Virus record (IMG/VR): IMGVR_UViG_3300013102_000002
Coordinates: 64,001-128,000 of that record
DNA: 64,000 nt
Source of the DNA: a virus
Reading direction: 5' to 3' (one strand)
This document shows, piece by piece, positions 21,332 to 62,867 of the stretch; position 1 is the stretch's first letter; every line of letters begins with the position of its first letter. The notes under the pieces were generated by a model. That model did no database searches. It saw only the letters and a list, made by a program, of their open reading frames with translations, and was not told where the DNA came from. A program made the translations under genes and the position numbers.

Positions 21332-21684
21332 CGGAGTGGACGGTGTAATAATGGAGAATATAAGAGTTAATAACAATACTGATTATGAAAATGACCAATT
21401 TTTAGGCATATGTAAGTTCTGTCTAGAGGCTGCAATAATTGACGATATAGAGGTGTGCATACATTGTATCAAGTGAGTTAGAATAAATTCCGTTCTTGAT
21501 AAAAACAAGGTTTTATCAAATTCTAAATGAATATTTATACGGCCCTTAATTTACAAGTGTCGTATTTTTCATGAGAATATACATTTAAATGTATGAATAT
21601 TAGGACGGAAAATTTAATGAATAAATATATACAAACACATAAAAGTGTGATACAATGTATTTATAAGGTAATACATAGGAGGCA

Positions 21685-21876
21685 ATGAATATGAAATTTG
21701 AACGTGGAGTACCATACGAAATCAAGTATAAAGGCGTAAAGAAATCAAAGGTTGGAACGTATCTCTGTACAAGCGATGGAGTTAACATATTTTTTGATAT
21801 AAGCGGTGAATTTGGTGTAAGTGATGAATTTATCAAGAATCGGCATGTTGATATTGAAGAAATAGCGGACATTTAG
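21685..21876 (+). CDS. Hypothetical protein
   Basis: GGAGG RBS, own promoter. Confidence 0.65.
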   Translation: MNMKFERGVPYEIKYKGVKKSKVGTYLCTSDGVNIFFDISGEFGVSDEFIKNRHVDIEEIADI

Positions 21877-22067
21877 TGAATTACTCATTTCATAAGGAGA
21901 TGTTAACAATGTTGAAAAATAAAAATCCTAAATTGTGGGCTTGCGCAAAAGAGATTTGCAGAATTAAGAATGAAGGAAAAACATTCAAAGATGTAAAGGA
22001 TTTAAGGAATTTCGTTAAAGAGAATAAATCTCTCTTGCCAGCAGTTGTTGATGGTTGGGCGGTCTAA
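21876..22067 (+). CDS. Hypothetical protein
   Basis: Small ORF ending at a junction palindrome. Confidence 0.55.
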   Translation: MNYSFHKEMLTMLKNKNPKLWACAKEICRIKNEGKTFKDVKDLRNFVKENKSLLPAVVDGWAV

Positions 22068-22095
22068 ATGAAAGAGTGATTTCGTTTAATAAACA

Positions 22096-22278
22096 TTGAA
22101 AGGGAGTATAAATATGAAGGATGAATTAATTATCACACTAAAAACAAACAATAGTTCTACAGACATTATGAATTTTGTAACTGCTGTAAATAAAACAAAT
22201 AGTCTGACTGCGCTAGTTTTACCAAAATTAGATGATAAAAATTATTTTGAGATTAGTGTCTATAAATTAAACACTTAA
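22096..22278 (+). CDS. Hypothetical protein
   Basis: GGGAG RBS; flanked by junction palindromes at 22068 and 22278. Confidence 0.6.
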   Translation: MKGSINMKDELIITLKTNNSSTDIMNFVTAVNKTNSLTALVLPKLDDKNYFEISVYKLNT

Positions 22279-22391
22279 TAAAACCCGTCTTTCATAGCCT
22301 ATATTCACAACACACAGTCACAATAGCCCATTACTTACGCGATTTATTCAGATGTGTTACTATGGCAAAAAGAGCTATAGGAGGCGTTAAA

Positions 22392-22646
22392 ATGGCTTAC
22401 ACAACGTGTAGAGATGAGTTGTTGAAGACGGTCAGAACGTTAGTGAAGGATAAGGGTAAAAATGAATTTACACCTATAGAAGTCATATCCCTGATGATTC
22501 AAAATGGGTCTAATTATAATGTGAGAACGATACGAACACATATTGTATCTAAGTGCTGCATTAACGCTAACCAGAATCATGCTGAAGTATTTAATGATTA
22601 TAGGAGATTGGAAAGAGGAAAGTATGAGTTGGTTAATTTTAAATAA
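22392..22646 (+). CDS. Small putative winged-helix protein
   Basis: GGAGG RBS; EFTPIEVISLM..RTIRTHI..LERGKYEL. Confidence 0.6.
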   Translation: MAYTTCRDELLKTVRTLVKDKGKNEFTPIEVISLMIQNGSNYNVRTIRTHIVSKCCINANQNHAEVFNDYRRLERGKYELVNFK

Positions 22647-22782
22647 AAAGTGAGTGCTTGGTGAGTAGATCACTGAGCACGTTTTTATTTAATTAATAAA
22701 TATATATTGACAATACAATTAGTGGAGTGTATTATTGTAGATAAGAAGAGGAAACACAATACATAGTGCGGAGGCGGTAAAG

Positions 22783-23013
22783 ATGATGAAAATTTCAGAG
22801 CTTATTGAAGTTTTACAAAAGATTGATCAAGATATGTATGTTGAGGTGGATACTCCGGTAAATCAAACATATCATATTCCTTATTCTTCTAGCAACGAGA
22901 TTTTTAAGGTTGAGGGGCTAGTGAAGAAGAGTATGGATAGATTTGTAATAAGCATTCGCTTCCCAGAAAATGTACAGGAATTAAACGCTCAAGTTAATTT
23001 AAGTAAAAAATAA
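22783..23013 (+). CDS. Hypothetical protein
   Basis: Own promoter, GGAGG RBS. Confidence 0.65.
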   Translation: MMKISELIEVLQKIDQDMYVEVDTPVNQTYHIPYSSSNEIFKVEGLVKKSMDRFVISIRFPENVQELNAQVNLSKK

Positions 23014-23065
23014 GTAACGAAGATTTGATCAAATTTTAAATTTATTAGATAATGGAGGAATTTAT

Positions 23066-23248
23066 GTGGATGTTAGTCAGAAAGTGCTTAACATTACTTT
23101 TAGTATCGCTGCCGCCTATGTAGTTATTCGAATGGCATTAGATTTTTCTACTGACAACTTCAATCACTTAGTGATTAGAGCCGGACAACTCGCTTTTATT
23201 GCTGCCGTTTATTATTACACTACTTACAGATTAAAGAAAGACGGATGA
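23066..23248 (+). CDS. Small two-TM membrane protein
   Basis: GGAGG RBS, two hydrophobic segments. Confidence 0.6.
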   Translation: MDVSQKVLNITFSIAAAYVVIRMALDFSTDNFNHLVIRAGQLAFIAAVYYYTTYRLKKDG

Positions 23249-23381
23249 TATGTTATCTTTGAATGAAATGTCAATTTCACATAAATCAAGGTATTCAAAA
23301 TGAAAATTTAGGTATTGACTTTGAATCACTAAATATGTTAAGATGTAAATATAAGAAAAGATATTAAAGGAGCGGGTTAAC

Positions 23382-24064: not shown

Positions 24065-25084
24065 ATGATTAAAAAAGCTAACATCCAATGGAGTGCGAAA
24101 CAACTCACAAAGTCAATTCAAAAAGGCAACATTAAATTTGATAATGCTGTGCAACGTGGTTATGTATGGGATCAAGATAGAAAGTCTCTGCTTATTCATT
24201 CTCTTATCGAAGGATACCCTGTACCAGCGTTCTACGCTGTCAAAGATGAGAATAGTCAATATAGCATGCTCGATGGCAAGCAACGCTCTGAGGCCATTAG
24301 CGGCTTTCTAAATGGAGAATATGAACTAACCAATGTCCCAGAAATTAATATTGGCGATGAAGGCGAAACGCTGAATATTAACGGTCTAAGATTTTCCAAT
24401 TTACCAGAAGATGCAAGAGATGAAATAGAAAGTTATTCACTAACTGTTTATTATTTTGATAGTCAGATTACGGACGATGAAATAAATGAATTGTTCTTCA
24501 GATTAAATAACGGTAAGCCATTAACAAGTATTGAACTTAGCAGAGTTAAGGCTAAATCAATTGAAACTATCCAGGAGATCGGCAAACATGAACTTTTCAA
24601 AGCAACACTAACAGAAAAGGCCATTAACAAATATACAAATGAAGAAATTGTTATTAAATCATGGGCGATGCTGAACGTTGAACAACCTTCATTTGAAACT
24701 AAGTCAATCCGTCCTCTGATTGAAACAGCAGATATTACGCCGGAACAGACAGAAGAAATTAAAATTGCCTATGATCGAATCCTAGAGACATATAACTCAA
24801 TCAAGCAGATTGATGATAAAGAGCATAATAAAATTGCAAAACGAATCATCACACGCACACACTTGATTGCACTGGTTCTAGTAGCCGCTAAATCCGTTAG
24901 TGATGGAGTTGGGATTTCCGATTTTACAAAATGGGCAACGTCATTTTTTAGTGGAAAGAATTCTGCAAGTGTGAGCGATATTTATAATAGTGCAATTGGC
25001 TCTGGATCTGCAAAACCGGAAAACATCAAGAAAAGAAATGATTCGATTATGGAAAGTTACAATGAACAATTCTCAAACCAATAA
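24065..25084 (+). CDS. DUF262 (ParB/Srx-fold, GmrSD N-terminal-like) protein
   Basis: VQRGYVW, LIHSLIEGYPVP, LDGKQR, FFRLNNGKPL. Confidence 0.85.
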   Translation: MIKKANIQWSAKQLTKSIQKGNIKFDNAVQRGYVWDQDRKSLLIHSLIEGYPVPAFYAVKDENSQYSMLDGKQRSEAISGFLNGEYELTNVPEINIGDEGETLNINGLRFSNLPEDARDEIESYSLTVYYFDSQITDDEINELFFRLNNGKPLTSIELSRVKAKSIETIQEIGKHELFKATLTEKAINKYTNEEIVIKSWAMLNVEQPSFETKSIRPLIETADITPEQTEEIKIAYDRILETYNSIKQIDDKEHNKIAKRIITRTHLIALVLVAAKSVSDGVGISDFTKWATSFFSGKNSASVSDIYNSAIGSGSAKPENIKKRNDSIMESYNEQFSNQ

Positions 25085-25513
25085 CCACACCTGTACTTAC
25101 TGCAACAAGCCCGTCACACAAGCAGCATACGCTTACTGTCTGTCTAATGGGCTTCCTGTGGCTTGCTACAGGTGTCAATATGATAAGGGTATAAGTAAAT
25201 ATAGTGTACACCAGAGAATGCGACAGAAGGTCGATGAGGAGGGTTTGACAATGAATTTAGATGATGAGGAGGAATAAAGAATGAATATGTTAAAAGGAAT
25301 AATGATGGACTTTTGGTCTAATAACTGGACTCTGGTTGCTGCTATTGTGGTATGGGGATTATGGATTGTTAAAGTTGTGGAGTGTGTAACTGATTAGTTT
25401 AAAGAATAAATATATATTGAATAATATATATGCGTGTGGTATGATTGCATCAAGAAATACATAGGACGAATACTGATCAAACAGTTACTTTATCAAATTT
25501 AAGGAGGTCATCT

Positions 25514-25672
25514 ATGAATGATTATCTGGTAGTGTTCTATAATCGGTTTGCATGTCAGACTCAGACGATAAAAATTAGAGCAAAAAATAAGTTTCGAGCT
25601 GGACGAGAATTTTATAAACAATACGATAAAAAACAGTAATATGAAACAATTGAGGCTATTACTAAGTGCTGA
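25514..25672 (+). pseudogene. Small ORF with internal TAA, bracketed by two junction palindromes
   Basis: AAGGAGG RBS; MNDY..KKQ*YETIEAITKC*; second stop abuts palindrome 25672. Confidence 0.45.
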
Positions 25673-25715
25673 TGAAAGTCTGAGTTTATCAAAAATATAA
25701 AGGACGGTAGATAAA

Positions 25716-26535: not shown

Positions 26536-26839
26536 AAATAATGAATAGATTTAATAAATAAATATATATTGACTGTTGTTGTTTTGCGTGATAAGATAAT
26601 TACAGATAATAAACATACATACATGAGGTGAAATGGATTAATGTACGAAGTAAAAATCATTGAAAAGATATTTGGAAAGTTAGCAGTAAACGTGTACAGC
26701 TTTGAAAAAGAAGGAGATATGGAACTGTTCATTGAAATGTGTAAGGATGATAGGGGGATTATTTTGATCCATAAAGCGAGAGCTGCTTAAAGAAAAGCTG
26801 ACGAAATTATGTTTTTATCAAAAAGGAGAGAGGTAAACA

Positions 26840-27184: not shown

Positions 27185-27215
27185 ACGAAACTATATTTTC
27201 ATGTGAAAAAGGAGA

Positions 27216-27404: not shown

Positions 27405-27437
27405 GTAAAATGATCCTTTCAAAAGGAGTTAAATAGT

Positions 27438-27823: not shown

Positions 27824-27852
27824 GTTTATAAATAGATTATTTTATAAGGAGG

Positions 27853-28088: not shown

Positions 28089-28460
28089 ATGAAATTTATG
28101 ACTAAATGGATTGGCAATGAAGTCAATACGAGTGGAAGTTATTACGAGGCAGGTTGTGAAGAACTAAAGAAGAGAAATGGCGGTACAAATAATGGAGGAA
28201 CTTTGTATGAGTTCAGTAGCAGATTTGACGAGAACTATTATATAAGCGATATCGATGTAATTGAAAAAATTGAAACATTGATTGATAAAAAAGAACCTTC
28301 AGAATTGATTGATTACTTATATAAATTGACCATTGATAAATTCGGCGCTGTTGATCTTTTAGTGAGAATCGGACATAAGATAGCACGACAGCGAGATGAA
28401 GGTTATAAAGCAGGTAAAGAAGCGGCTAGAAGCACCATGCGTGAAGCGCTTGGGTTATGA
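28089..28460 (+). CDS. Hypothetical protein
   Basis: GGGAG RBS; stop codon lies inside palindrome 28457. Confidence 0.7.
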   Translation: MKFMTKWIGNEVNTSGSYYEAGCEELKKRNGGTNNGGTLYEFSSRFDENYYISDIDVIEKIETLIDKKEPSELIDYLYKLTIDKFGAVDLLVRIGHKIARQRDEGYKAGKEAARSTMREALGL

Positions 28461-28491
28461 AAGAAGTATTTCACAAGGAGACATTAGCATA

Positions 28492-28695: not shown

Positions 28696-28732
28696 GGCTA
28701 ATGCAATAAGTCTTTTACAAGGAGTTGATTTA

Positions 28733-28930
28733 ATGACAGAAACAGAAGCAATTATGAGAAGAAAAGCTAGGAGAATTAAAAGAGCAAGTGAAATGGTCGA
28801 ATGGCTTCGTTATGATATTGAACGTACAGCAGTAAGTGAAGTTGAAAAACAAGGGTTATTAAATACAATCACTTTATTGAATAAAATTTTAAAGAATGAT
28901 GATAAAGAAGATTCCATATGGAATAGGTGA
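28733..28930 (+). CDS. Hypothetical protein
   Basis: AAGGAG RBS; palindromes on both sides. Confidence 0.6.
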   Translation: MTETEAIMRRKARRIKRASEMVEWLRYDIERTAVSEVEKQGLLNTITLLNKILKNDDKEDSIWNR

Positions 28931-28981
28931 TGAAAGAGAAAGTTTATCAAGAATTTATTATAAAAAATAAATATACAAAGG

Positions 28982-29164: not shown

Positions 29165-29657
29165 GAATGGACGAGTAAAGGACGGAAAGTGTGTTGTGGT
29201 GACTGTGGAAGGTGCGGAAATTGGTTTACTTGATGCTGCTAAAAAATATAGTCAAAATATTAAATAGCTGATGTGGCGGACATTATAAAATGTTCGCCAT
29301 TTTTTATTTAATAAGTAAATATATATTGAATAATGACTATGTATATGGTAAAATGAAGGAGACAAGAAGGATGTTATACATATGAAGGAGAATAGAATAT
29401 TGAGCGCTGATAATGCTAAAATGAGATCAATGATTGCTTTACAAATCCGGGATCTGGAAGCATTGAAGGATTCTGCCGTTGCCAAGTCATCACCTCAACG
29501 GTTAATGATGGTTGAGGCTGAGATTAAGGGATTGCATGTTAGAATGGAAAAGTATGCTTGATTTATGTTTTCGTAAAAGGTTGGTTTTATCAAGATATTT
29601 GGTTTAAAAAAGCCAATAAAATCAAGGGTTTTTAAAATGACAAGGAGGAGTAAAAAA

Positions 29658-30437: not shown

Positions 30438-30503
30438 CATCTGATCAAAGGAATGTTTTATCGGATTACACATTAGACACATATAGTAAAGGAGAAAAGT
30501 AAA

Positions 30504-30707: not shown

Positions 30708-30945
30708 GACTGCTGAACAGTCGAAGATATAACGACATATGAAAGGAATGGAGGGTCCTAAAATGCACAGCAATGTGAATGGTGTTAATGGATATCAAAT
30801 TCATCATTGGACGCTATTACATAACAGATAAAAAAGACAACGGTGTGTGGCTCTGCGAGGATAAGGATAGAAGTATTGTAGAGGAATATGCAAAAACATT
30901 GGAGTAGAATGAAAGGCATCTTTTATCAAGAAAGGAGGGTGAATA

Positions 30946-31432: not shown

Positions 31433-31884
31433 GATAAAATGTAGTTTTGATCAAAAGATATACATACATTGAGAGAGAAAGGAAGAAGATAAATGATTGA
31501 GTTAAACAATCTTAATGTAACTAATATCGTTTATGATGAGGACTATGTTCTCATCATAAAAGGTAAAGAAATTGTACAAATTAGTCGAGTTTTATTGTCG
31601 CGAATCAATGTGATGTTATCAGATGAAAAGGAATAAATATTTCTTATGTTACGAAGTCACAGAACCAGAAAGAGAGTTATGAATAAATGCATCAGAAAAA
31701 AGTATGGAGCCTTGACATGAAGTACGAAGATACAAAGGGAGGATATAAGCGTGGACAGTAGACTTTGTGTTTGCAGAGAGTGTCAAAAGGCATTTCGGAG
31801 CACGTACAACGGCTATCTGTGCAGAAATTGCAGGTTGTCTAAAAGAGGACCTTTACCAAAATGATATTTAGAGGAGGATATTAA

Positions 31885-33136: not shown

Positions 33137-33517
33137 GTGATTTTGATGCACCAAGTGTTCTCGGGTAATTTCATTATTCATAAGGGGCCGAATGGATACA
33201 AATCGCGCGAATTATCATCCTACATGACGCAACTATCAAAAGAAATTTTGGCCTATCTTCATTTTCTATTTATAACGGAAGAATCGATAAATTCTATGCT
33301 TGAGGACTATGAACTTAATCGAATTATGGATTCAGTAGTGAGTAAGAAGATTCCCAGAGAATTATTTGAAAACAGTCTCATGTCTGAAATGGATGGGTTC
33401 CCAGAATTTTATTCAGAAGAATTAATGAATAATTCATCAAACCCAAATGGGGAAATTTTAACAGTAGATATTATGAAAAAGATAGTAATAAGCTTGATTG
33501 AGAAGAAGGCCACATGA
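33137..33517 (+). CDS. Hypothetical protein
   Basis: AGGAG RBS; stop inside palindrome 33514. Confidence 0.65.
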   Translation: MILMHQVFSGNFIIHKGPNGYKSRELSSYMTQLSKEILAYLHFLFITEESINSMLEDYELNRIMDSVVSKKIPRELFENSLMSEMDGFPEFYSEELMNNSSNPNGEILTVDIMKKIVISLIEKKAT

Positions 33518-33821
33518 AATACGAATTTTATCTAAAATTGCGATGAAAAAACCCTTGATTTATAAGGGTTTTTTGTTTTGTCTTTTTATGAAAATTTTGA
33601 ATTTTGGAATTTTTTCTGTTTAAGAGTGAAAATATAAGGTTAATACAAAATAAGAGAGACATTAGTCACGTATATACATATTCCCAGCAGTAATGCAGTA
33701 CTTTTCAATTTTCAGAGAATGTCAACACCAAAACACACTATTATCCTAATTTATGTAAGGAAATTTTGTGCAACAACATTTGTATTGACAAAAACAAAAA
33801 CATTTGAATTTATTGACGTTT

Positions 33822-33835
33822 AGAACAAATGTTCG
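33822..33835. promoter_or_regulatory. LexA/SOS (Cheo) box upstream of mazF
   Basis: AGAAC-AAAT-GTTCG matches the Firmicute consensus CGAAC-N4-GTTCG. Confidence 0.7.
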
Positions 33836-33944
33836 CTTGTGAAAATAACTATCACTAGGTATAATAAATATATAAATAGTTAATAATAAAAGTACATAGT
33901 GATAGAAAAAATAGAGTGAAGCAAGAACAATAATAATCGGGAGT

Positions 33945-34349
33945 GTGGTACATATGAGCATGGTCATGGAACGAGTGGAAATGAATAAAAATACTAAAAT
34001 CGATGTAAGGAAATATGAAGTGTGGATGGCTGATTTAAACTCAGACGGTTCTGTACAAGGAGGAAGAAGACCAGTTGTTATTGTATCCAACAATCTTCAC
34101 AATAAATTTTCTCCGACTGCCATTATTGTACCGACAACAGGAAGCAAAACAAAACGTCCGCTTCCTACTCATGTCGATCTAATTGCTTCTGAGACAGGAT
34201 TTATTAAAAACAGTGTTATGCTGTGTGAGCAAATCACTTCTATTGACAAAGAACGACTGAAGTGGAAAATAACCGACCTCCCTCTAAATTATCATGGGAT
34301 AATTAGTAAAGCCGTAGGAGTAGCGACTTCCGATGTACAAGTTTACTAA
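33945..34349 (+). CDS. mazF: MazF/PemK-family endoribonuclease toxin (start uncertain)
   Basis: EVWMADL..GSVQGGRRPVVIVSNN..NKFSPTAIIVP..LPTHV..SVMLCEQITSIDKERL. Confidence 0.92.
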   Translation: MVHMSMVMERVEMNKNTKIDVRKYEVWMADLNSDGSVQGGRRPVVIVSNNLHNKFSPTAIIVPTTGSKTKRPLPTHVDLIASETGFIKNSVMLCEQITSIDKERLKWKITDLPLNYHGIISKAVGVATSDVQVY

Positions 34350-34372
34350 ATAAATATAAAAAGAAGAGGTTT

Positions 34373-34603
34373 TTATACCTCTTCTTTTTTAGAATCATCT
34401 TTGTGATATTTAAACAAATCAATAATATCAATATCTAACTCATCACATATTGAGACAATATTCTTTAGAGGAATTTGTTTGGCTGTATTATTGCACATTT
34501 CATTGATAGTTGAATGCCTTATGTTGGTACGTCTAGAAAGTTCTCTTTTAGTAATCCCCTTGCTATCTAGTATGTATTGTAATCTTATCTCAACCCATGA
34601 CAT
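34373..34603 (-). CDS. XRE/Cro-C1 HTH regulator (YozG-like)
   Basis: LQYILDSKGITKRELSRRTNIRHSTINEMCNN..ICDELDIDIIDLF; GGGGG RBS. Confidence 0.85.
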   Translation of the reverse strand: MSWVEIRLQYILDSKGITKRELSRRTNIRHSTINEMCNNTAKQIPLKNIVSICDELDIDIIDLFKYHKDDSKKEEV

Positions 34604-34631
34604 GATGTATCCCCCTGAGAATAATTAAGTA

Positions 34632-34684
34632 TTGACTTATAAAAGGTAATCTAGTATATTAAGGGTGGAACGATAATCGTTCCA
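34632..34684 (+). promoter_or_regulatory. sigmaA promoter with perfect palindromic operator
   Basis: TTGACT(34632)-17-TATATT(34655); TGGAACGAT-A-ATCGTTCCA at 34666-34684, between the divergent HTH gene and 34711. Confidence 0.7.
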
Positions 34685-34710
34685 AAATTTAAGCATAGAA
34701 AAATCTCCCC

Positions 34711-35001
34711 ATGAATATGGAGAGATACTTATTAAGCAATCATAACAGAGTTAGAAATGAAATCATAGGCAAAATATTACATCGAGGTGCAGTCAGAATT
34801 ATGCCTAAAACGGGAAGATATTGTTTACAACGTCTGGTTTATTTTGATCCAGAAAGCAGACTTGAAACCTGGAAAATAACAAATTTAAAAAGTGATAGTG
34901 TCCATGCTTTTAGCAATTTTAATACTGAATTATACAGAATATTTGATACATTAGAAAACAAAGTTATTCCATTTATAGAAATTAAAAACATCATAGAGTA
35001 A
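34711..35001 (+). CDS. Hypothetical protein
   Basis: ORF downstream of promoter; weak RBS. Confidence 0.45.
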   Translation: MNMERYLLSNHNRVRNEIIGKILHRGAVRIMPKTGRYCLQRLVYFDPESRLETWKITNLKSDSVHAFSNFNTELYRIFDTLENKVIPFIEIKNIIE

Positions 35002-35075
35002 TATATTATATTTTTTATAATGAATAAAAATATGACAAATAATAATTAAATGATGTATAGAAGGGTGGAACTTAA

Positions 35076-35375
35076 ATGAATATTACATACAAGCATCTTC
35101 CCAAACATAAAAAGTTCTTAGTTCAAATGAGCGGCAGAGCTAATAGATATTGTTACGAGGTGAGGTATGAAATAGAAGTTGATCGAGGAGAAAGAATTGT
35201 TGAGGGAATCAATATTCTAAAAAAAGATATGTTGAACAGCGAAGAACTAACAAAAGAAACTTTAGCAATATTCAATACAAATTTTAAACGTGATTATTAT
35301 AGGATATTTAGGCTATTGTCGGTTGAACTTATAAATGCTTACTATATCAAACCAGACTTTCTGAAGGGGATATGA
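35076..35375 (+). CDS. Hypothetical protein
   Basis: RBS GGGTGG. Confidence 0.65.
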   Translation: MNITYKHLPKHKKFLVQMSGRANRYCYEVRYEIEVDRGERIVEGINILKKDMLNSEELTKETLAIFNTNFKRDYYRIFRLLSVELINAYYIKPDFLKGI

Positions 35376-35379
35376 CTAG

Positions 35380-35643
35380 ATGGATGATCAAGTTGAATTG
35401 ACTGTCAAATTGGTGCAGGTGGATCGTGGAAACGATTTTTATGATAGATACTTGAGACCAAAAGATGTTAGTACATACACCTTTGAAAGCAATAGGGAGC
35501 GGTATGTATGGCAGATCAATAATCCCTATGAAGAGGGCTTGATCGAGGGAGATTATTATAAGATATGTGCAACCAAAGGGAAAAGATTGTTTGGTGGAAG
35601 AGGAGTTGCACTAATTGATGTAGTGATAACATCCTATATCTAA
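35380..35643 (+). CDS. Hypothetical protein
   Basis: AAGGGG RBS, coupled to the upstream ORF. Confidence 0.65.
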   Translation: MDDQVELTVKLVQVDRGNDFYDRYLRPKDVSTYTFESNRERYVWQINNPYEEGLIEGDYYKICATKGKRLFGGRGVALIDVVITSYI

Positions 35644-35791
35644 CCAAGAAAAAACTAAATAGTGTACCATAAAAAGTTCTATACATATGCAAATAAATGA
35701 CTTTAAAGTTGTTTATTTGTGTATAATAGGACTTTTTATTGTTATTTATTAAAATAGTATTGCAATTTTTAATCACAATGGTAAATTAGGT

Positions 35792-36283
35792 TTGGGGGTG
35801 ATATGTCTGGGGTATATTAGTGAAGATAAGAATTCTTTAAGCATTATGACATACACTTTAAACAGTGGAATAAAATCGACAGTGCCTTTGTCTGCCATAC
35901 AGATTGAAGAATGGAAAGAATGCTACCAAAATGATAAGAAGTTTATAGTAAATGTAGGAACAGAAACGTTTGGCTTGAATCCGTCCTTAGTAGCGGATTG
36001 GAGAGTACATAATAAATATTCGGAACACAGAAAACAAATTGAATGTACTATTAAAGACGTAACCCCCAATATTGAATTAAAGAATGCCTACGAAAGAGCT
36101 AAAGTTTTGATAAAAGTTGATTGCAAATGTGGAACAACTTATACTACGGAATCAACAAAAAGAAAAGTTTGGTCCTGTAGCAAATGTAAGCAAGAAGTAT
36201 ATATTATTGATGATAGTCTACATGATACAAATAAAGGAAAAGCATACGTAATGTCGAATAAGGTAAATATGTTTAAAAATTAA
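35792..36283 (+). CDS. Zn-ribbon protein
   Basis: CKCG..CSKC near the C-terminus. Confidence 0.65.
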   Translation: MGVICLGYISEDKNSLSIMTYTLNSGIKSTVPLSAIQIEEWKECYQNDKKFIVNVGTETFGLNPSLVADWRVHNKYSEHRKQIECTIKDVTPNIELKNAYERAKVLIKVDCKCGTTYTTESTKRKVWSCSKCKQEVYIIDDSLHDTNKGKAYVMSNKVNMFKN

Positions 36284-36284
36284 A

Positions 36285-37076
36285 GTGGAAAGGAAACTTA
36301 ATTTGATCAATAAAAAATTAGAAAGCAAACTTAAGGAACTTGAAAGAAGTCATGGCTATTTGAATGTTGAACTATATGATAAATACAGAGGCAAAGAATA
36401 TCCTTCAAGCGAAACCATAAAGAAAAGCTATAATCAATCTTTGGTTGAAATATTAAAAAACCTAAAAATTAAAAATAAAGAAGATTATACCATAGAAAAA
36501 AACAGACCAGTCGCCATAAGCAATATGAAGTTATTGTTCTTAGAACATGGAGAAATATCTAAGTCGTTGTATGATAGAGCTAAATTATTGCCCAGCAGTG
36601 AGTACATTACAAAAAAATATGGATGGGAAGAATTAGCTAAAGAAGCAAATGTCAAATTGGCTAATTCTCAGTACACATCGAGTGGAGCAGTTCTAAGTGA
36701 GTTGAGGTTTAGAATAAAGGAACTAGGTTACATACCAACAAGTAAAGAGTATGAACAATTAAAGCTAAAACCCTCTTTAGAAGTTTTGCGAAAGTATAGA
36801 TTTACATTTGTAAGTGCTATGCGTAAATGTGGATTTAAAACATATAATAAACCAGTTACAGTTAAAGATAAGATTTGCAACAGTAAGAATTGCTTCAGGC
36901 AGTTTACTCCTGTAGATGATGAAATATATTGCGATGAATGTTATAAGGACTTAAGATCCAGACTTATTAAAGAGATAGGTAATATGAATCAACAAAGACT
37001 TAGAGATGTCTGCCAAAAGCTAATATATACAGGAAACAAACAAAAGACAATATTAGACATATTTAACAATATGTAA
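36285..37076 (+). CDS. Protein with homing-endonuclease-associated repeats and C-terminal Zn finger
   Basis: Three repeats like LGYIPTSKEYEQLKLKPSLEVLRKYRFTFVSAMRKCG; CNSKNC..CDEC. Confidence 0.6.
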   Translation: MERKLNLINKKLESKLKELERSHGYLNVELYDKYRGKEYPSSETIKKSYNQSLVEILKNLKIKNKEDYTIEKNRPVAISNMKLLFLEHGEISKSLYDRAKLLPSSEYITKKYGWEELAKEANVKLANSQYTSSGAVLSELRFRIKELGYIPTSKEYEQLKLKPSLEVLRKYRFTFVSAMRKCGFKTYNKPVTVKDKICNSKNCFRQFTPVDDEIYCDECYKDLRSRLIKEIGNMNQQRLRDVCQKLIYTGNKQKTILDIFNNM

Positions 37077-37151
37077 AATTAGCGAAATAATTAATGAGAA
37101 TTTATTATATTTATATTTTATGATATAATTTAAATAAGGAGATGAACTCAA

Positions 37152-39487: not shown

Positions 39488-39498
39488 GTTTAAAAGTG

Positions 39499-47468: not shown

Positions 47469-47675
47469 AAAGGGAAGTGATGATATGTTTCCTGTTGATT
47501 TAGAAATTTTCAAGGACGTTCTTGATGCGGTTGTTAGTGGAGACTATACATATAGCGAGTTGTTGGAGTTAAGAGACAAGTTGAAAGACGTAGCGGACTA
47601 TGTAGAACGGTTGTTAGATGAAGAGTAAATGATGATAAAACTGTTAATTTATGAAGAAATTAAAGGAGGATAAAA

Positions 47676-48190: not shown

Positions 48191-48239
48191 TTTCTTGATA
48201 AAAACCGCATTTTATTTGAATATTTAAGGAGATGGTAGA

Positions 48240-49048: not shown

Positions 49049-49095
49049 TAATGGTTAATAAAATAAGGAATTGATTAGGAAAGGAGGGCTGCTTA

Positions 49096-49836: not shown

Positions 49837-50073
49837 ATGAACGAATTTGAAGAATTAAAAGAGTATGAAGAGGATTATTTAAAAAGTAATTGGTCTCGTA
49901 TGGACTTATTTTTAGCAGAAAAAATTAAAATGCAAAGTAGTGAGTTGGAGAACTTGAGGAAGTTTTATAGTTATTTTCGTGAATTGTATGGCGAAGGTCT
50001 GGAGGTAGCAAATTGGCACAAAAACGGAGATCTGGAACCATTTGATAACCTCTTTGATTCCGCCGAAGAGTGA
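49837..50073 (+). CDS. Hypothetical protein
   Basis: GGAGAGG RBS; palindromes on both sides. Confidence 0.65.
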   Translation: MNEFEELKEYEEDYLKSNWSRMDLFLAEKIKMQSSELENLRKFYSYFRELYGEGLEVANWHKNGDLEPFDNLFDSAEE

Positions 50074-50107
50074 TAAAATAAAACTTTTATGAGGAGATGA
50101 GAAAAAT

Positions 50108-52074: not shown

Positions 52075-52309
52075 TAATACACACTGTTTATGGAATGCTT
52101 ATGCAATGTGCTGTCACGAGAGCAAAGAAGGTTATGCAGCAGCAACACCTAATGAGTTGGATTGTTCATCATCACTACGTAAGGACTTTCAGGAGTCAAT
52201 GTATCAAATGATGGATGAAATTGATGAAATGATGATTAAGAGAAAGTTTATTGAGTTAGTTCAAATACATAAATTTGTAAGAGATCAAAGAAAAGTTGAT
52301 AAAGTCTAA
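52019..52309 (+). CDS. Cys-rich hypothetical protein
   Basis: CNNTHC..CC; true start probably near 52061. Confidence 0.6.
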   Translation: MTLLCFAGAPERMLMMICNNTHCLWNAYAMCCHESKEGYAAATPNELDCSSSLRKDFQESMYQMMDEIDEMMIKRKFIELVQIHKFVRDQRKVDKV

Positions 52310-52338
52310 ATTTCGTGAAGAAAGGATGACTATTAATA

Positions 52339-53718: not shown

Positions 53719-53776
53719 ACTTCATAAATGATAGGTTTTATTATAACAAAAATACATATAAAAGGAGAAATAATTA

Positions 53777-54445
53777 ATGGAAGCATATGAATATCAAAAC
53801 GAAGTAAATGAACTAATTGAGGATCAAGACGAACTATCTTATATTATCCAGGATGAGACATGGAAGGTACTAGACCTAGCAACTGCTGTATGGGTAGATG
53901 AGAAAATCCATGAACGAGAAGTCAAGATTGCAGAAGTTGAAAAAGTTGCAGATGATAATATTACTGCACTGGAAGCGAAGATCGAGAAACTGAAGGCGTG
54001 GAAAGATGCTTCTACAAAGGTAGATAAGGATCGAATTACATTCTTCAAAGAACATCTACATATTTGGCATAGTAAATTGATTGATTGCGAAAAGCAAATA
54101 AATGAAGAGTTGATTGCTAAAGGTAAAAAAGAGAAGAAACTGAGCCTCACTGTCAAATTGCCGTATCGTAATTTGACTTGTCGTAATCAGAGTCCAGAAA
54201 TTATTATCAATGGCAAAGACACTTTGAACGCCAAAAAAGATGAAACGTTTGTTAAATACGTAAAAGAGAACAGTCCACAATACATTAAAACAACCGAAGA
54301 AGTTAAGTGGTCAGAATATAAAGACAGCCTCAATACAAGTGTGATCGATGGTGAGTTAATGTATGTAGATGAAAACGGCAGTCCAATTGAATTTATTAAA
54401 CTTCAACAACGTGGAGAAAAGTATGATTGGAAACTGACTGAATAA
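53777..54445 (+). CDS. Mu Gam-like host-nuclease inhibitor
   Basis: WKVLDLATAVWV, coiled coil, TVKLPY..RNQSPE, YIKTTEEVKWSEYK. Confidence 0.75.
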   Translation: MEAYEYQNEVNELIEDQDELSYIIQDETWKVLDLATAVWVDEKIHEREVKIAEVEKVADDNITALEAKIEKLKAWKDASTKVDKDRITFFKEHLHIWHSKLIDCEKQINEELIAKGKKEKKLSLTVKLPYRNLTCRNQSPEIIINGKDTLNAKKDETFVKYVKENSPQYIKTTEEVKWSEYKDSLNTSVIDGELMYVDENGSPIEFIKLQQRGEKYDWKLTE

Positions 54446-54774: not shown

Positions 54775-56088
54775 AAAAACCTTGAAAGGGAGGTGATATA
54801 ATAAATGTATAAATCAATCTACATTCCAGTAAAAGCAAATAAAGCAGATATAGTTTATCTTTTTCAAACCAGAAGATTATCTGCCGAAGTATGGAATTTA
54901 TGTGTCCAACTTGACAAATCAAATAGAAAAGAAACTGGAAAGTCTCTTACAATGTCAGAAATTCAAAAGTTAACAAAGAAATGTGTGGGGCTACATGCCA
55001 AAGGTATACATCATGTATCTCACAAATACCTATTTGCAAGAGACGCAATGTTTCGGTCTAGGGAGTCAGGTGTGGAAAGAGTCAGATTACCATATAAAAA
55101 TAAGCGATATTTCAATACTGGCTGGGACTACCAAAGTATAAAAATTGACTATGACAAGGGAATCATTTTTCTTGCTCGACAAAGTAGTATTGTTGACGGA
55201 AAAGTAAAAAGAAACCCCCGTGTAAAATGTTATGCAAGAACTATTCCAAAAAATATTGTAGAGATTGAATTAACGCACAAGGGGAAGTTGATGCTTTGTA
55301 TTAAGTACAAAGAAGAAGATTATCTCGAAGTTAAACGTGAGAATGAGGCATCTATTGATCTTGGTGAAATTCACGCAATAACATCTATGTGCAACAATAA
55401 GAACGGAGTTATAATTACTGGTCGAAAAATCCGAGAAATAAAACATCTAAGAAATAATAATTTATCCGTACTGCGTTCCAAAAGAAGCAAATGCACAAAG
55501 GGTAGTAGGCAGTATAGAAAATACTCTAGGGCAATTGCAAAATTACAGGTAAAAACAGATACCAGAGTAAATGACTGTGTTCACAAAGTTTCTAAACAAT
55601 ATCTTGATTTTTGTCTAACAAACAATATAGGCAAGGTTTATTATGGAGATCTTGATTCTGCCACACGCTCCACGAAGCAGAATAATAAAGGGAATAATCA
55701 CGTTAGACAGAAATTGAGTCAATGGAATTACGGTGAACTAATGCGGCAAGTAGAAAATAAACTAACTCGTCACGGAATCAAACTAGAAAAGGTCAAAGAA
55801 TATTATACCTCACAGAAGTGTCCACAATGTAAAACTCTGAATAAAGTTCATAACCGCGAATACAAATGTTCATGCGGATACAAGCAACACAGAGACATTG
55901 TAGGAGCAATAAATATACTTAATGACAATGGTGGATACTCAATAGTGAGATATGAAACAAAATTGTATCTGCAAATTGCTTAGAGCATGAGCAGTAAATG
56001 TGGACGTAAGCCACCACTTGAACATGAGTGTAGCCTATGGATTACGCATAGGAAATTGATTCTAGTGTTTCACTAGATGAAACCTTAC
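54773..56088 (+). mobile_element. Non-autonomous IS200/IS605-family (IS1341-type) tnpB-only element; ends inferred
   Basis: Preceded by TTTAT (putative TAM), ends in subterminal hairpin TCTAGTG-TTT-CACTAGA..TTAC; removing it restores a consensus junction palindrome; no tnpA. Confidence 0.6.
54805..55983 (+). CDS. tnpB: TnpB RNA-guided endonuclease with rearranged RuvC-II glutamate
   Basis: ASIDLGE (RuvC-I), YYGDL (Gly at the canonical Glu), KVKEYYTSQKCPQC, CSCG..HRDIVGAINI. Confidence 0.92.
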   Translation: MYKSIYIPVKANKADIVYLFQTRRLSAEVWNLCVQLDKSNRKETGKSLTMSEIQKLTKKCVGLHAKGIHHVSHKYLFARDAMFRSRESGVERVRLPYKNKRYFNTGWDYQSIKIDYDKGIIFLARQSSIVDGKVKRNPRVKCYARTIPKNIVEIELTHKGKLMLCIKYKEEDYLEVKRENEASIDLGEIHAITSMCNNKNGVIITGRKIREIKHLRNNNLSVLRSKRSKCTKGSRQYRKYSRAIAKLQVKTDTRVNDCVHKVSKQYLDFCLTNNIGKVYYGDLDSATRSTKQNNKGNNHVRQKLSQWNYGELMRQVENKLTRHGIKLEKVKEYYTSQKCPQCKTLNKVHNREYKCSCGYKQHRDIVGAINILNDNGGYSIVRYETKLYLQIA

Positions 56089-56105
56089 GAAAGGCACGTT
56101 TTATC
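55984..56105 (+). ncRNA. Putative omegaRNA 3' scaffold plus guide
   Basis: Successive hairpins GTGG..CCAC, CACTTG..TGAGTG, CCTATG..CATAGG, TCTAGTG..CACTAGA right after tnpB; guide would begin near 56089. Confidence 0.6.
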
Positions 56106-58149: not shown

Positions 58150-58202
58150 CACGATGAAATGCGTGTTTTATTAATAAATAAAAATATATAGGAGATGAAA
58201 TT

Positions 58203-58994: not shown

Positions 58995-59289
58995 TATAAA
59001 AAACAAGATCAAATACATATTTAAACAAAAACAAGGAGTGGTTGTTTTGGAAACTAGATGGAGTTTTTATGGAGAAAATGTAAAAGAGAAACTAGTTCCG
59101 AGTTTAGAAAGATACGGATTAAAATATGTAGAGCCTGATGGAAAGAATCGAGAATTTTATAATTTGGATCTGATTAGTTATAAGCAATACGAAGATTTAG
59201 AAACATTAGCTGAGACACTCGACTTAGTATTGCGCATCAGACACGGAGCAGAATGGTTGGCATGTTTATATTATGATCTGAGCAAATGA
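58978..59289 (+). CDS. Hypothetical protein
   Basis: AAGGAG RBS inside the ORF; true start likely near 59047. Confidence 0.55.
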   Translation: MFCRIDIKNKIKYIFKQKQGVVVLETRWSFYGENVKEKLVPSLERYGLKYVEPDGKNREFYNLDLISYKQYEDLETLAETLDLVLRIRHGAEWLACLYYDLSK

Positions 59290-59512
59290 ACATTTCATAA
59301 TGAAAGGAAAGAATGATGAGGTGTATAACATGAGAGTTCCTGCCGAATCTTTAAAGAAGTCTCTTGAAGACATGAAACAAATTCGTCAAGGCAAACAACC
59401 TAGAAAAACGTGGGATGATTATTTAAAGGAACAAAAGGAAAATATGAAATCATCTGACACATTAATGAAGGGAATATGAGTAAAAAAAATACATAAAATC
59501 AAAGGAGAAAAA

Positions 59513-60557: not shown

Positions 60558-60839
60558 ATGAAACAACACATATCTCCAATGCAAGCAAGAGAAGTGACAG
60601 AGGAGCAGTTTTATTCTTTTTATCCAGAGGGTGAATTAGTAAGGCGAAAAGATTGGGCTACATATCATCACAAGAAAATGACTATCGGTAAGATGATTGA
60701 GATCATGACTAATAAAGGACATAAGATAACCATTGATAACTGTACCCCATGCTCAGTTAAGGATTATATGATCGATAAAGAGTACTGCCAAATGAGCGTA
60801 TGCGATACGCTTTGGGATGCGGTCAAAGGTTGTATTTAA
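60558..60839 (+). CDS. Hypothetical protein
   Basis: GAGGTG RBS; MKQHIS..IGKMIEI..CDTLWDAVK. Confidence 0.7.
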   Translation: MKQHISPMQAREVTEEQFYSFYPEGELVRRKDWATYHHKKMTIGKMIEIMTNKGHKITIDNCTPCSVKDYMIDKEYCQMSVCDTLWDAVKGCI

Positions 60840-61057
60840 ATAGATTTTAGAGGGGGATACACCAACTGTTGAATCTTTAGCGATGGACTATATGTTCTAT
60901 TCACAATATTTGAGAGAGGATGAGTGATAATAATGCCATATATGCCAGATTTACACTATTGCTGTGTATGCAAAGAATATCTGGGGCCAGATAATGGTGA
61001 TGGTATTTGTTTGGATTGTGATACTGAAGAAGAAATCAATATCGAGGAGGAAACTAA

Positions 61058-61420
61058 TTGACACTAACAAAAGAGGTGGTCCTAGCTCAAGTCCCAGGTA
61101 GAACACTTGATATAATGGTTGCCGAAGAAGTTATGGGATTCAGATATAAATATGTTGAGCGTTATAACGTGTTCATGTGGGTTAAATCGGAAACCGAATG
61201 TACTTCGTGGTTTCCAGCATCAACCGACATAGCTGTAGCATGGGAAGTTGTGGAGAAGATGAGAGAAATGGGCGTATATCTTAATATTCACGCCGATAAA
61301 GACACTTACTACGTTCTTGGATTAGTAAGTTCTGAATCTGCTCCGGAAGCAATTTGTAAGGCTGCTTTAATCGCAATCATATATATGAAAAATGATGCTA
61401 ATAATCGACAACCTGTATGA
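61058..61420 (+). CDS. Phage ABA-sandwich (BC1872-like) domain protein
   Basis: GRTLDIMVAEEVMG..STDIAVAWEVVEKM..APEAICKAAL. Confidence 0.8.
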   Translation: MTLTKEVVLAQVPGRTLDIMVAEEVMGFRYKYVERYNVFMWVKSETECTSWFPASTDIAVAWEVVEKMREMGVYLNIHADKDTYYVLGLVSSESAPEAICKAALIAIIYMKNDANNRQPV

Positions 61421-61423
61421 CAT

Positions 61424-61633
61424 TTATTCATACCAATCATTAAAGTCGTCTCTATAAAAAATTGGAGGGATGAAGCGAGTACTCCAACCACATTTTTCAC
61501 ATTTTAAAATAACTTCATTATTAACCATCATAGGTACTATCTTTCCGTGTACATAGACTGAACTACATCTCATCATTCTGTCATCATTTTTTTGGAATAT
61601 GTTTATTCTGTCAATTAAGATTTGGTTGTCCAT
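61424..61633 (-). CDS. Small Zn-ribbon protein on the opposite strand
   Basis: GGAGG RBS on the minus strand; C..H..CEKC. Confidence 0.6.
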   Translation of the reverse strand: MDNQILIDRINIFQKNDDRMMRCSSVYVHGKIVPMMVNNEVILKCEKCGWSTRFIPPIFYRDDFNDWYE

Positions 61634-61740
61634 AATACATCTTTCCTCCAAACGATCAAATTAATTAACTACATACAATTCTACACAAGAAAAAAATAAA
61701 TGCAAATTCTAAGATTGGGAAATTGTAGGAGGAATAAATC

Positions 61741-62163
61741 ATAAAAATACTTGAATGTTCATCCAAAGGAGATAAGCGTTTTTCTGCATTTTACGCTAAA
61801 GTTAAAGCATGGGGAAGATATGACAGTATAGAAAACCATTATCAACTCGCTAAACGATTTGGAGATTATAAACCTACATCATGGAAAGATGCCAAGGGAA
61901 AGCAACCAACGCATATTGAGTTGAATGGAAAGCAGTATGAATTACGCTTTCTGTCTCAATGGTATCAAATGCTATGGGTAAATTACCTGGATAACAATCC
62001 TGATCTGGTTGAATATGCAAAAGGATTTGATGAATTCAATGATATTTTCAAAGGTAAAAGTTTGAACTGTCAGGCTGACGTTGTGAGACAATACATAAAA
62101 CAAGGAAGGCAATCCCTGGTTGATGAGTACCAGGAGTTAATGGATTTGTTTAAGAAAAAATGA
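61741..62163 (+). CDS. NADAR-like phage protein; probable ATA start
   Basis: GGAGG 8 nt before in-frame ATA; KILECSSKGDKRFSAFYA..SIENHYQ..NCQA; the ORF track shows only the C-terminal 80 aa. Confidence 0.6.
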   Translation: MKILECSSKGDKRFSAFYAKVKAWGRYDSIENHYQLAKRFGDYKPTSWKDAKGKQPTHIELNGKQYELRFLSQWYQMLWVNYLDNNPDLVEYAKGFDEFNDIFKGKSLNCQADVVRQYIKQGRQSLVDEYQELMDLFKKK

Positions 62164-62174
62164 AGATTTGAGAG

Positions 62175-62789
62175 GTGAACATTATTAAAATTGCAGGGAT
62201 TAGTATTAATCTGAAGAATCGTGAAAAGTGGGTTGCAATTATTGGTTCTAGAAACGCCACAACAGATGAACTTAAAACAGCATTTAATTTTTCATTCAAC
62301 CTTGCTTCTCAAGGATACATAATTGTTTCAGGACTTGCCAAAGGAATTGATGCTGCTGCACACAAAGGGGCAATTGCAGCAAAAGGAAAAACAGTAGCAT
62401 TGGTGAATGCACCAATCGAACAAGATATTTATCCTTGGCAGAATAGAAGTCTTGCCGAACAAATTAAGCAATTTGGATGTATCATTCATCCGTTCACTGG
62501 TAAGGCAACAGAGGACAATGAAAAGGGCTTGAGCCAATTTTCTAAGCGTCTGATCGAACGAGATAGACTTCTGGCAAGACTGTGTCCCAAAGTCGTTACA
62601 GTTAAGAATGAGGGAGTTATTGATGGCGGTACACGATATGGTATGACTTATGGCAAACAGTATGATCAAGATGTTTATCGTTATGATAACCAGATGACGC
62701 TACACAAAAACCCCGAAGTCAAAGAGGGTAAGATTTGGTGGAATATGGAGTTAGATATTGAAGGTTTGATTGACGAATATTTCTCATAA
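62175..62789 (+). CDS. SLOG/DprA(Smf)-like protein
   Basis: VAIIGSRNAT, SGLAKGIDAAAHKGA, ERDRLL, GGT. Confidence 0.85.
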   Translation: MNIIKIAGISINLKNREKWVAIIGSRNATTDELKTAFNFSFNLASQGYIIVSGLAKGIDAAAHKGAIAAKGKTVALVNAPIEQDIYPWQNRSLAEQIKQFGCIIHPFTGKATEDNEKGLSQFSKRLIERDRLLARLCPKVVTVKNEGVIDGGTRYGMTYGKQYDQDVYRYDNQMTLHKNPEVKEGKIWWNMELDIEGLIDEYFS

Positions 62790-62867
62790 AATTGGGCTTT
62801 CATCAGAAAATAAGTTGAGTAAAACAGAGCAATTAAGAGTATTTAAGAGATACTGGGAGGTTCTATT

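Follow-up and report, generated by a model that had tools for sequence, protein, structure and literature searches.

The window analysed here is a stretch of 64,000 nucleotides, bases 64001-128000 of IMGVR_UViG_3300013102_000002, a 174,510-bp (174.5 kb) IMG/VR record with direct terminal repeats that we call G0 (G000 where whole-genome coordinates are given). G0 is an SPbeta-like phage, with a homologue of the MrpR/YopR master repressor (window 38473-39468, both MrpR Pfam domains present) and a YopQ-like DndB-family protein (window 37152-38483), and nearly all genes of the window lie on the + strand. Between these genes recurs a short palindrome, two inverted arms around a core of six base pairs. 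These palindromic sites are the subject of this study, together with a recombinase gene whose 3′ end opens the window:

Window 1-77 (whole gene G000 63010-64077), strand +, 3′ end of the gene for a YopP-like Xer-type tyrosine recombinase, candidate enzyme for the sites

Palindromic sites at gene junctions

The palindrome is far more frequent than expected. Its strict form, ATRAAA-N6-TTTYAT, occurs 30 times in G0 against about 0.7 expected from second-order Markov simulations, and other spacings of 4-8 nucleotides (nt) are not enriched; the loose form, RYNAAA-N6-TTTNRY, is matched 24 times in the window, where 5.7 matches are expected. A symmetric weight matrix built from G0 itself finds 73 sites at a cut-off of 12 bits, where 4.1 are expected, and 85 at 10 bits. 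With the matrix, too, the 6-nt spacer alone is enriched, spacers of 3-5 and 7-10 nt remaining at background. All 31 copies listed in the original prediction, which was made from the window sequence alone, were recovered; 30 of them score at least 10 bits and the one at 27405 scores 9.1. Six further positions in the window reach 10 bits, of which 21876, 23028 and 49058 are good and 41254, 59300 and 63054 doubtful. The range first given for the system, 21496-62803, proved too narrow, as the sites are spread over the whole of G0, in both arms, and are densest at 78-174 kb. The remark that good copies are missing around yopQ/yopR was borne out: the block at 33.5-45.8 kb, with yopQ/mrpR and their neighbours, holds a single, doubtful copy.

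The sites occupy a well-defined place between genes. Outside called genes lie 59 of the 73, and non-coding DNA makes up 12.7% of G0 by the same calls (genes 87%). A stop codon ends between −12 and +20 nt from the site start in 46/73 sites (median 5 nt before it), and a start codon lies within 60 nt in 52/73, beginning a median of 23 nt after the site, which agrees with the placement first described, namely overlapping or following a stop and preceding the next ribosome-binding site. The same context of stop codon, site and ribosome-binding site is found in SPbeta itself, which has 14 strict copies where about 0.8 would be expected. Two complete IMG/VR relatives of G0, here G1 (164.0 kb) and G2 (166.6 kb), whose MrpR is 95% identical to that of the window, have 27 strict copies each against 0-1 in controls.

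Each site consists of two half-sites of about 10 bp with the consensus YYTNATRAAA, inverted on either side of the 6-bp core; a typical half-site is CTTGATGAAA. The arms plus about four flanking bases obey one consensus on each side. When sites are oriented by their downstream gene, mirrored positions do not covary, and no pair of positions has more Watson-Crick pairs than shuffled controls. At positions 3/16 the counts (G-T 20, A-T 16, A-C 14, G-C 10) are those that independence predicts, with about 12 A-C mismatches expected. Because mirrored positions are independent and the same consensus holds on both sides, the site is best read as a pair of equivalent half-sites recognised in duplex DNA by a symmetric protein assembly, and not as a hairpin, a conclusion that the original prediction had drawn from arms varying without compensatory pairing. 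The layout appears to be that of a tyrosine-recombinase core site. A sigma-70 promoter was considered as well and rejected by inspection, as the hexamer spacing does not fit and a ribosome-binding site follows immediately.

The sites of the window are listed below in window coordinates, all with strand "."; bits are weight-matrix scores, the comparison with relatives refers to the core, and G010 is a further record with a YopP homologue.

14212-14229, strand., site with core TACTTG, 23.0 bits; core same in G1 and G2
21499-21516, strand., site with core ACAAGG, the best copy (9-6-9), 23.8 bits; ACAAGA in G1 and G2, one mismatch
21876-21893, strand., site with core TACTCA, new in this analysis, 15.7 bits; core same in G2
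22068-22085, strand., site with core GAGTGA, 13.8 bits; core same in G2
22278-22295, strand., site with core CCCGTC, 14.7 bits; core same in G1 and G2
23028-23045, strand., site with core TTTTAA, new in this analysis, 16.4 bits; core same in G2
23263-23280, strand., site with core TGTCAA, 11.7 bits; core same in G1 and G2
25476-25493, strand., site with core CAGTTA, 13.1 bits; core same in G1, two unrelated flanks
25672-25689, strand., site with core GTCTGA, 17.9 bits; core not found in G1 or G2
26801-26818, strand., site with core TTATGT, 19.6 bits; core same in G1, slot to the next site 384 nt against 273 nt in G1
27185-27202, strand., site with core CTATAT, 13.2 bits; core same in G1, two unrelated flanks
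27405-27422, strand., weak site with core TGATCC, 9.1 bits, under the threshold; G2 homology starts at 27404
27828-27845, strand., site with core AGATTA, 16.3 bits
28047-28064, strand., site with core GGATTC, 18.5 bits; core same in G2, two unrelated flanks
28457-28474, strand., site with core GAAGTA, 15.7 bits; core same in G2, two unrelated flanks
28701-28718, strand., site with core TAAGTC, 13.1 bits; core same in G2
28930-28947, strand., site with core GAGAAA, 16.4 bits; core same in G1 and G2, homology in the right flank only
29573-29590, strand., site with core GGTTGG, 20.6 bits; GGTTGA in G1, G2 and G010
30444-30461, strand., site with core GGAATG, 18.3 bits; G1 homology starts and G2 homology ends here
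30909-30926, strand., site with core GGCATC, 17.2 bits; 18-mer identical in G1 and G2, flanks differ
31434-31451, strand., site with core TGTAGT, 16.8 bits
33514-33531, strand., site with core TACGAA, left edge of a conserved 8.7-kb lysogeny block, 19.1 bits
41254-41271, strand., doubtful copy with core GAGTTA, 12.6 bits; within a called gene, right arm TTGTAT
45853-45870, strand., site with core GACAGA, 23.6 bits; core same in G1, GACAGT in G2
47635-47652, strand., site with core CTGTTA, 17.2 bits; core same in G1 and G2, homology in the left flank only
48198-48215, strand., site with core ACCGCA, 20.0 bits; TCCGCA in G1 and G2
49058-49075, strand., site with core TAAGGA, new in this analysis, 15.2 bits
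49800-49817, strand., site with core TCATCA, 14.6 bits; core same in G1
50073-50090, strand., site with core TAAAAC, 17.6 bits; core same in G1 and G2, two unrelated flanks
52299-52316, strand., site with core TCTAAA, 15.2 bits; core same in G2
53724-53741, strand., site with core GATAGG, 16.4 bits; core same in G1
56087-56104, strand., site with core GGCACG, 19.6 bits; core same in G1 and G2, two unrelated flanks
58154-58171, strand., site with core TGCGTG, 14.3 bits; core same in G1 and G2, two unrelated flanks
59281-59298, strand., site with core TGAACA, 13.7 bits; core same in G1 and G2, two unrelated flanks
62786-62803, strand., site with core TTGGGC, 23.0 bits; core same in G1 and G2, two unrelated flanks

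Cores as addresses in related phages

G0, G1 and G2 are strongly mosaic, and nucleotide alignment covers only 59-83 kb of 174 kb. Every core is unique within its own genome (85/85, 75/75 and 86/86 in the three), in keeping with the first report of a spacer that always differs. Of the 85 G0 cores, 44 and 52 recur exactly in G1 and G2, in perfectly collinear order; as controls, reversed cores gave 2-3 recurrences and 6-mers taken from the flanks at a fixed offset gave 6-18. The 300-nt flanks of the 96 same-core pairs, compared at the nucleotide and the translated level, have no homology in 36 pairs, homology on one side only in 47 and on both sides in 13. Pairing sites by flank homology alone, we found identical cores in 31 of 37 pairs, with a per-position identity of 0.88-1.0 in the core and only 0.52-0.69 at the free arm positions 3 and 16. 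Because identity in the core at these flank-defined orthologous sites exceeds that of the free arm positions, the core is under site-specific constraint despite having no consensus.

Breaks in homology gather at the sites: 38 of 270 ends of high-scoring segment pairs (HSPs) lie within 15 nt of a site centre, against 3.4 at random. The slots between neighbouring sites also differ in length, measuring 2067, 954 and 1378 nt after site 56087 in G0, G1 and G2, 1127, 3126 and 462 nt after site 58154, and 3505, 590 and 920 nt after site 59281. Comparison with the relatives shows that the sites are junctions at which flanking genes get exchanged, and that the cores act as fixed collinear addresses, the contents of the slots differing between phages while their order stays. 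The original prediction had supposed an integron-like capture and free shuffling of single genes. We saw no sign of this: attC-like hairpins, attI and Pc were not seen, the cores are collinear and the order is kept.

The papers searched on the element, on YopP function and on SPbeta mosaicism yielded no description of these sites; new here are unique, collinear, conserved 6-bp cores whose flanking genes are swapped between relatives. Two window segments used as queries found no match in a phage-collection DNA search (the collection may be without near relatives), one small cassette protein gave no match in a search for relatives, and an IMG/VR scan with one full site (arms and one core) returned mainly chance matches, the large contigs that were checked among them being without the recombinase.

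The comparison was extended to 27 phages of the SPbeta family, namely SPbeta, phi3T, SPR, SPbetaL2, BUCT083 and 22 IMG/VR proviruses with a YopP homologue. Many cores are common to phages whose flanks differ. SPbeta and phi3T have several addresses in common with different neighbour genes, for example the site before yopW (core TGTAAG, SPbeta 83687); further cores that the two share include GTAAAA (SPbeta 86885), GATCAA (113663) and TGCATA (69423). Four cores illustrate the range of flank alleles:

Core TGTAAG (before yopW in SPbeta; 26 phages), 3 left alleles, 7 right alleles, 11 combinations
Core GTAAAA, 5 left alleles, 9 right alleles, 15 combinations
Core TCGTAC, 4 left alleles, 10 right alleles, 13 combinations
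Core AGACTG, 6 left alleles, 4 right alleles, 8 combinations

Within the family, each half-site follows the flank on its own side. The left 11-nt half-site is identical in 0.89 of the pairs that share only the left flank and in 0.17 of those that share only the right flank; for the right 11-nt half-site the values are 0.73 of right-flank-only pairs and 0.28 of left-flank-only pairs. As half-sites track their own flanks, the change of linkage falls in the 17-18 bp of shared sequence that include the core, and the crossover can be mapped no finer than this shared stretch. The trend in G0, G1 and G2 has the same direction and is weaker.

The set of cores within one genome is also not random. Identical, reverse-complementary or palindromic cores number 0 in each of the three genomes, where 5.1, 4.1 and 6.9 are expected (P 0.004, 0.013 and 0.0007), and core pairs one position apart are depleted as well. 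Such avoidance would be expected if selection acts against cross-reaction within one genome, which would delete or invert DNA, and it also fits a need for direction at each site.

At one orthologous junction with a common left flank the 18-mer is exactly reverse-complemented, the core being TGATAA in SPbeta (99497) and SPbetaL2 (L157:33486) and TTATCA in phi3T (L155:30986) and BUCT083 (L158:31841), so a site or its core can flip. A 207-nt segment, 81% identical between G000 171043-171249 and G1 2830-3036, sits between cores GGCTGC and TGAGAC in G0 and between TGCGTG and TGAACA in G1, so some genes do change slot.

The longest unbroken homology of the window to G1 and G2 (33513-42218, 8.7 kb, 82-83% identical) has its left end precisely at site 33514 and includes yopQ/mrpR, with no good site inside. 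Both relatives are homologous from 33513 onwards, and each of the three genomes has a left flank of its own. Two assembly contigs of the probable source metagenome abut within window 33547-33578, and two further contigs match only rightwards from 33547 and 33568 (16-37 nt right of site 33514); these contig ends hint at a co-occurring relative with another left flank.

Candidate recombinases and a proposed exchange

The original prediction placed the recombinase outside the window, and a candidate was found there, the YopP-like gene that ends at window base 77. The protein has 355 amino acids (aa), carries the Pfam domains Phage_int_SAM_1 and Phage_integrase, and is 30% identical to SPbeta YopP (E 4e-34). 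Its catalytic residues R166, K194, H258, R261, H279 and Y288 (R, K, HxxR, H, Y) are conserved in a five-member family alignment. The solved structures best matched by the YopP family profile are XerA, XerH and XerD; a search of solved structures with the single YopP-like sequence gave no match. Because G0 also encodes a separate large serine recombinase, resembling the SPbeta integrase SprA, the tyrosine enzyme is dispensable for integration. In the literature YopP figures just as an XerC-like, family-conserved, lysogen-transcribed gene (PMC8612738, PMC10516654, bioRxiv 10.1101/2021.11.22.469490).

A second, intact tyrosine recombinase, YomM-like, is encoded in the late region outside the window (G000 39979-40962, strand −). 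It is 64% identical to the G1 copy, and HxxK replaces HxxR. The gene lies between sites 39585 and 41014, resembling a cassette in its own right, and was not found in a motif-rich relative of 88% completeness.

The co-occurrence of motif and YopP was examined in ten records that carry a YopP homologue, seven of them at least 88% complete and three being proviral fragments of about one-third completeness. All seven of the former are enriched for it: G0, G1, G2, G010, G012, SPbeta (by the strict pattern) and phi3T (by the weight matrix). Among these seven, a provirus whose YopP is 58% identical carries 30 strict copies in its 128 kb and a 164-kb phage whose YopP is 26% identical carries 13, the control giving 0-1 in either case. 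Among the fragments, G009 has 6 strict copies against 0 in the control, and G008 (1 against 0) and G011 (2 against 1) are indistinguishable from it. Four other B. subtilis phages were compared: the motif is absent from BSP21, PM1 and SPO1, and the 251 kb of AR9 contain 4 copies where the control gives 1; none of these four has a Phage_integrase match. Taken together, these observations suggest a pairing of the YopP-like enzyme with the sites.

Tyrosine recombinases such as Xer, Cre, Flp and lambda Int swap strands across a central region, which must match between the partners. In the exchange proposed here, each site would provide two inverted half-sites of about 10 bp (YYTNATRAAA) about its 6-bp central region. 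The likeliest enzyme would be the YopP-like recombinase encoded just upstream of the window, with its YomM-like paralogue as the alternative; it would bind and cut the sites, crossover would take place in the core, and the cores would be kept by the need to match. Because each site has its own core, it would recombine productively only with the site of matching core, which lies at the corresponding position in a relative that resides in the same cell or infects it at the same time. The outcome would be reciprocal, in-register crossing-over exactly at gene boundaries, even where two genomes have diverged too far to recombine by homology, and ectopic events inside one genome would be avoided. 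Over time this would leave slots with conserved addresses as borders and different accessory genes in different phages.

We lean modestly towards the view that a tyrosine recombinase encoded by the phage uses the sites as its dif-like core sites, permitting in-register exchange between diverged phages. On the fuller proposal, that SPbeta-like phages carry a genome-wide set of individually addressed Xer-type sites (about 20-85 each), every one with its own 6-bp crossover region, which YopP uses at gene boundaries, our judgement is evenly divided. Of the phage integron/pdif-like recombination first suggested, the tyrosine-recombinase architecture and the exchange of genes at the sites have stood up, and the capture and free shuffling of genes have not.

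Several observations weigh against this proposal. The whole case is built on comparative sequence, from which recombination itself is deduced. As breakpoints, motif junctions of G0 differ little from non-motif junctions (odds ratio 1.0-2.1), and in the SPbeta frame homology breaks with a probability of 0.42 where there is a site, 0.30 where a gene junction has none and 0.16 at positions chosen at random. Sites account for only 7 of the 96 unique breakpoints in that frame, though this is six times the random expectation. As site-less junctions break almost as often, mosaicism has other routes than the sites, which may not even be the principal one. Isolated conserved islands are also formed by terminators and by a promoter-linked repeat described below, motif sites making up about one-third (collinear matches only). 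In the SPbeta set, mutated cores at orthologous sites were not associated with lack of exchange (odds ratio 0.86). Lasting purifying selection on the cores is hard to derive from evolvability, or from the benefit of future recombination, alone. The tight placement of the sites, 20-27 nt before start codons, fits a role in gene expression too.

Other adverse points concern the enzyme and the assemblies. SPbeta YopP itself has Lys at 261, the position of the second catalytic Arg, and no site adjoins the recombinase gene, the nearest lying about 5 kb upstream and 14 kb downstream. Shared ancestry confounds the co-occurrence of motif and YopP. Contigs of the probable source assembly and one low-share run showed flat depth and nothing decisive.

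Alternative readings, known systems and significance

The alternative that survives best, though we think it unlikely, is a dispersed operator or architectural site bound by a symmetric dimer other than a recombinase, for example a small helix-turn-helix or HU/IHF-like protein, with a role in transcription control, read-through block, genome organisation, or replication or packaging. The sites would then be functional islands, and their coincidence with mosaic borders would merely reflect the fact that phage boundaries lie at gene borders. The palindrome with independently varying half-sites and the tight distance to the start codon speak for it, site-less junctions do break nearly as often, and terminators and promoter elements are conserved islands as well. 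An operator would leave unexplained, however, why the 6-bp cores are unique and better conserved than the free arm positions, why they avoid duplicates, reverse complements and palindromes, and why half-sites track their own flank with the switch inside the site.

The known regulator of these phages is a poor fit for such a role. Chromatin affinity precipitation sequencing (ChAP-seq) of the SPbeta master repressor gave peaks at SPBRE only (PMC10516654), and the SPBRE sequence differs. SPBRE resembles the sites in being a dispersed intergenic element of SPbeta-like phages bound by a protein of tyrosine-recombinase fold, MrpR, which binds it at about ten promoters in SPbeta (PMC10516654). It differs in being an asymmetric box of 15-24 bp, at about ten promoters and bound by a monomer; in phi3T the corresponding protein, SroF, is a monomer on a box of 24 bp (bioRxiv 10.1101/2025.11.27.690993). 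SPBRE as derived from ten published SPbeta targets, ACAAATACAAAWAATATGTATA, is unrelated to the palindrome, and the reading of the sites as MrpR operators was rejected on its asymmetry and unrelated sequence.

G0 has, in addition, a 17-nt promoter-linked repeat, TTAATRARTAAATATAT, in 22 copies, all on the + strand and directly upstream of sigma-A-like −35/−10 hexamers. Its window copies lie at 4932, 6465, 8575, 11321, 12273, 14649, 20161, 21614, 26551, 29308, 42145 and 63994. The repeat is probably the G0 counterpart of SPBRE, the MrpR operator, and it explains the repeated stretch found with window 21400-22400.

Rather less probable than an operator are passive linkers, sites kept for some other function at which exchange occurs by homologous or microhomology recombination with no dedicated enzyme; phage annealing or repair proteins, or host RecA, would use the 17-26 bp of shared sequence. 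The window does encode a Sak4-like AAA_24 protein (44659-45846) and a Mu Gam-like protein (53777-54445), and the crossover can be mapped only to the shared 17-18 bp. In laboratory hybrids of phi3Ts and SPbeta, 15 of 16 junctions fall at homology regions (bioRxiv 10.1101/2020.05.06.055103); these arose in long homology and so are uninformative about the sites. Yet orthologous sites of G0, G1 and G2 often differ at positions 3 and 16, and the longest unbroken run of identity is then often only 12 nt, and the 17-nt promoter-linked repeat coexists in G0 in 22 copies of direct orientation. Passive linkers also leave the palindromic consensus of the arms and the spare intact Xer-like recombinase unexplained.

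That host Xer recombinases (CodV/RipX-like) use the sites, as proposed for pdif, while the phage recombinases do something else, seems very improbable. The dif-like 10-6-10 layout would suit it, and the pdif modules of Acinetobacter plasmids presumably rely on XerC/XerD of the host (PMC13141974, PMC6449649). The half-sites, however, look like those of the single-recombinase XerH/XerS type, the sites are symmetric and not composed of two different half-sites, and the motif tracks phages that carry YopP. We give hardly any credence to an RNA-level element, a weak hairpin before the ribosome-binding site for mRNA processing, stability or translational control, which the position between stop codon and ribosome-binding site and the possible 9-10 bp stems of the best copies might suggest: the hairpin was rejected in the mirrored-position test, where no pair covaries, A-C mismatches are as frequent as under independence and pairing is not selected, and it is arm sequence and not structure that is conserved, around unique conserved loops with no obvious RNA role. 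We rank a recombinase first because a regulator leaves the features of cores and half-sites unexplained and microhomology leaves the arms and the spare recombinase unexplained.

Among the closest known systems, the single-recombinase Xer systems (XerH/difH, XerS/difSL, XerA/dif) likewise have two inverted half-sites of 10-11 bp around a centre, and their recombinases, about 355 aa long, combine a SAM-like with a catalytic domain. The difH half-site AGTTATGAAAA and the difSL half-site TTTCCGAAAA, which adjoin the central region and belong to enzymes of 354-362 aa, have a GAAAA end next to the centre, and the phage half-site CTTGATGAAA is of the same kind (PMC5357621). Xer systems differ in having one site per chromosome, for dimer resolution and often with FtsK, whereas the phage has about 85 sites per genome with different centres, at gene junctions, none of them adjoining the recombinase gene. 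The pdif modules share the use of many Xer-type sites with 6-bp centres that bound accessory-gene modules, in combinations that vary between related replicons (PMC13141974, PMC6449649). Their sites join an XerC half-site to a different XerD half-site, alternate in orientation and depend on host enzymes, and the modules change context; the phage sites have one half-site consensus, a phage candidate enzyme, and unique collinear conserved cores, so that exchange seemingly takes place in position.

Integrons are alike in combining a tyrosine recombinase with small, mostly single-gene units and imperfect palindromes abutting the stop codon. Their attC sites, however, recombine as folded single strands, with conserved structure and variable sequence and length, whereas the phage sites are of fixed length and conserved in sequence as a duplex; and integrons take up their cassettes at one attI behind a single promoter, whereas no attI or Pc platform was seen in the phage. 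The PeSL elements of T4-type phages are likewise repeated intergenic elements amid small accessory genes for which modular shuffling has been proposed (PMC2839356, PMC4122927). They differ in comprising about 70 bp with a strong sigma-70-type promoter and a terminator stem-loop, in probably recombining by homology between similar copies, and in possible mini-circles. The phage sites have 18-26 bp, are neither promoter nor stable hairpin, and have differing centres; since the ribosome-binding site follows directly, there is no room for a promoter. Cassette exchange with heterospecific lox or FRT sites relies on shared arms and different spacers, so that only sites with the same spacer recombine and replacement is ordered. 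It is a laboratory design with two or few sites; the phage set would be natural and comprise about 85.

Between sites 53724 and 56087, in one of the slots, lies a TnpB-like open reading frame (54805-55983) with OrfB_IS605 and Cas12f-like TNB domains. At 17123-20164 a 1013-aa fusion of an N6-adenine methylase and a DEAD/Helicase_C helicase is encoded, and at 24065-25084 a protein with a GmrSD N-terminal domain; these last two genes, found among the cassettes, may serve in defence or counter-defence.

How tailed phages come by mosaic genomes whose breakpoints lie at gene borders is an old question, to which the classical answers are conserved linkers, or random illegitimate recombination followed by selection. 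If the proposal is true, a third answer would be added, a dedicated and individually addressed site-specific system that permits in-register exchange only. It would assign a role to YopP, which is conserved across the SPbeta family, and would help to explain the free swapping of anti-defence and other accessory genes. The naturally orthogonal recombination sites might also serve as a tool. SPbeta-like phages would then possess a built-in, ordered gene exchange, a natural counterpart of cassette exchange with heterospecific sites.

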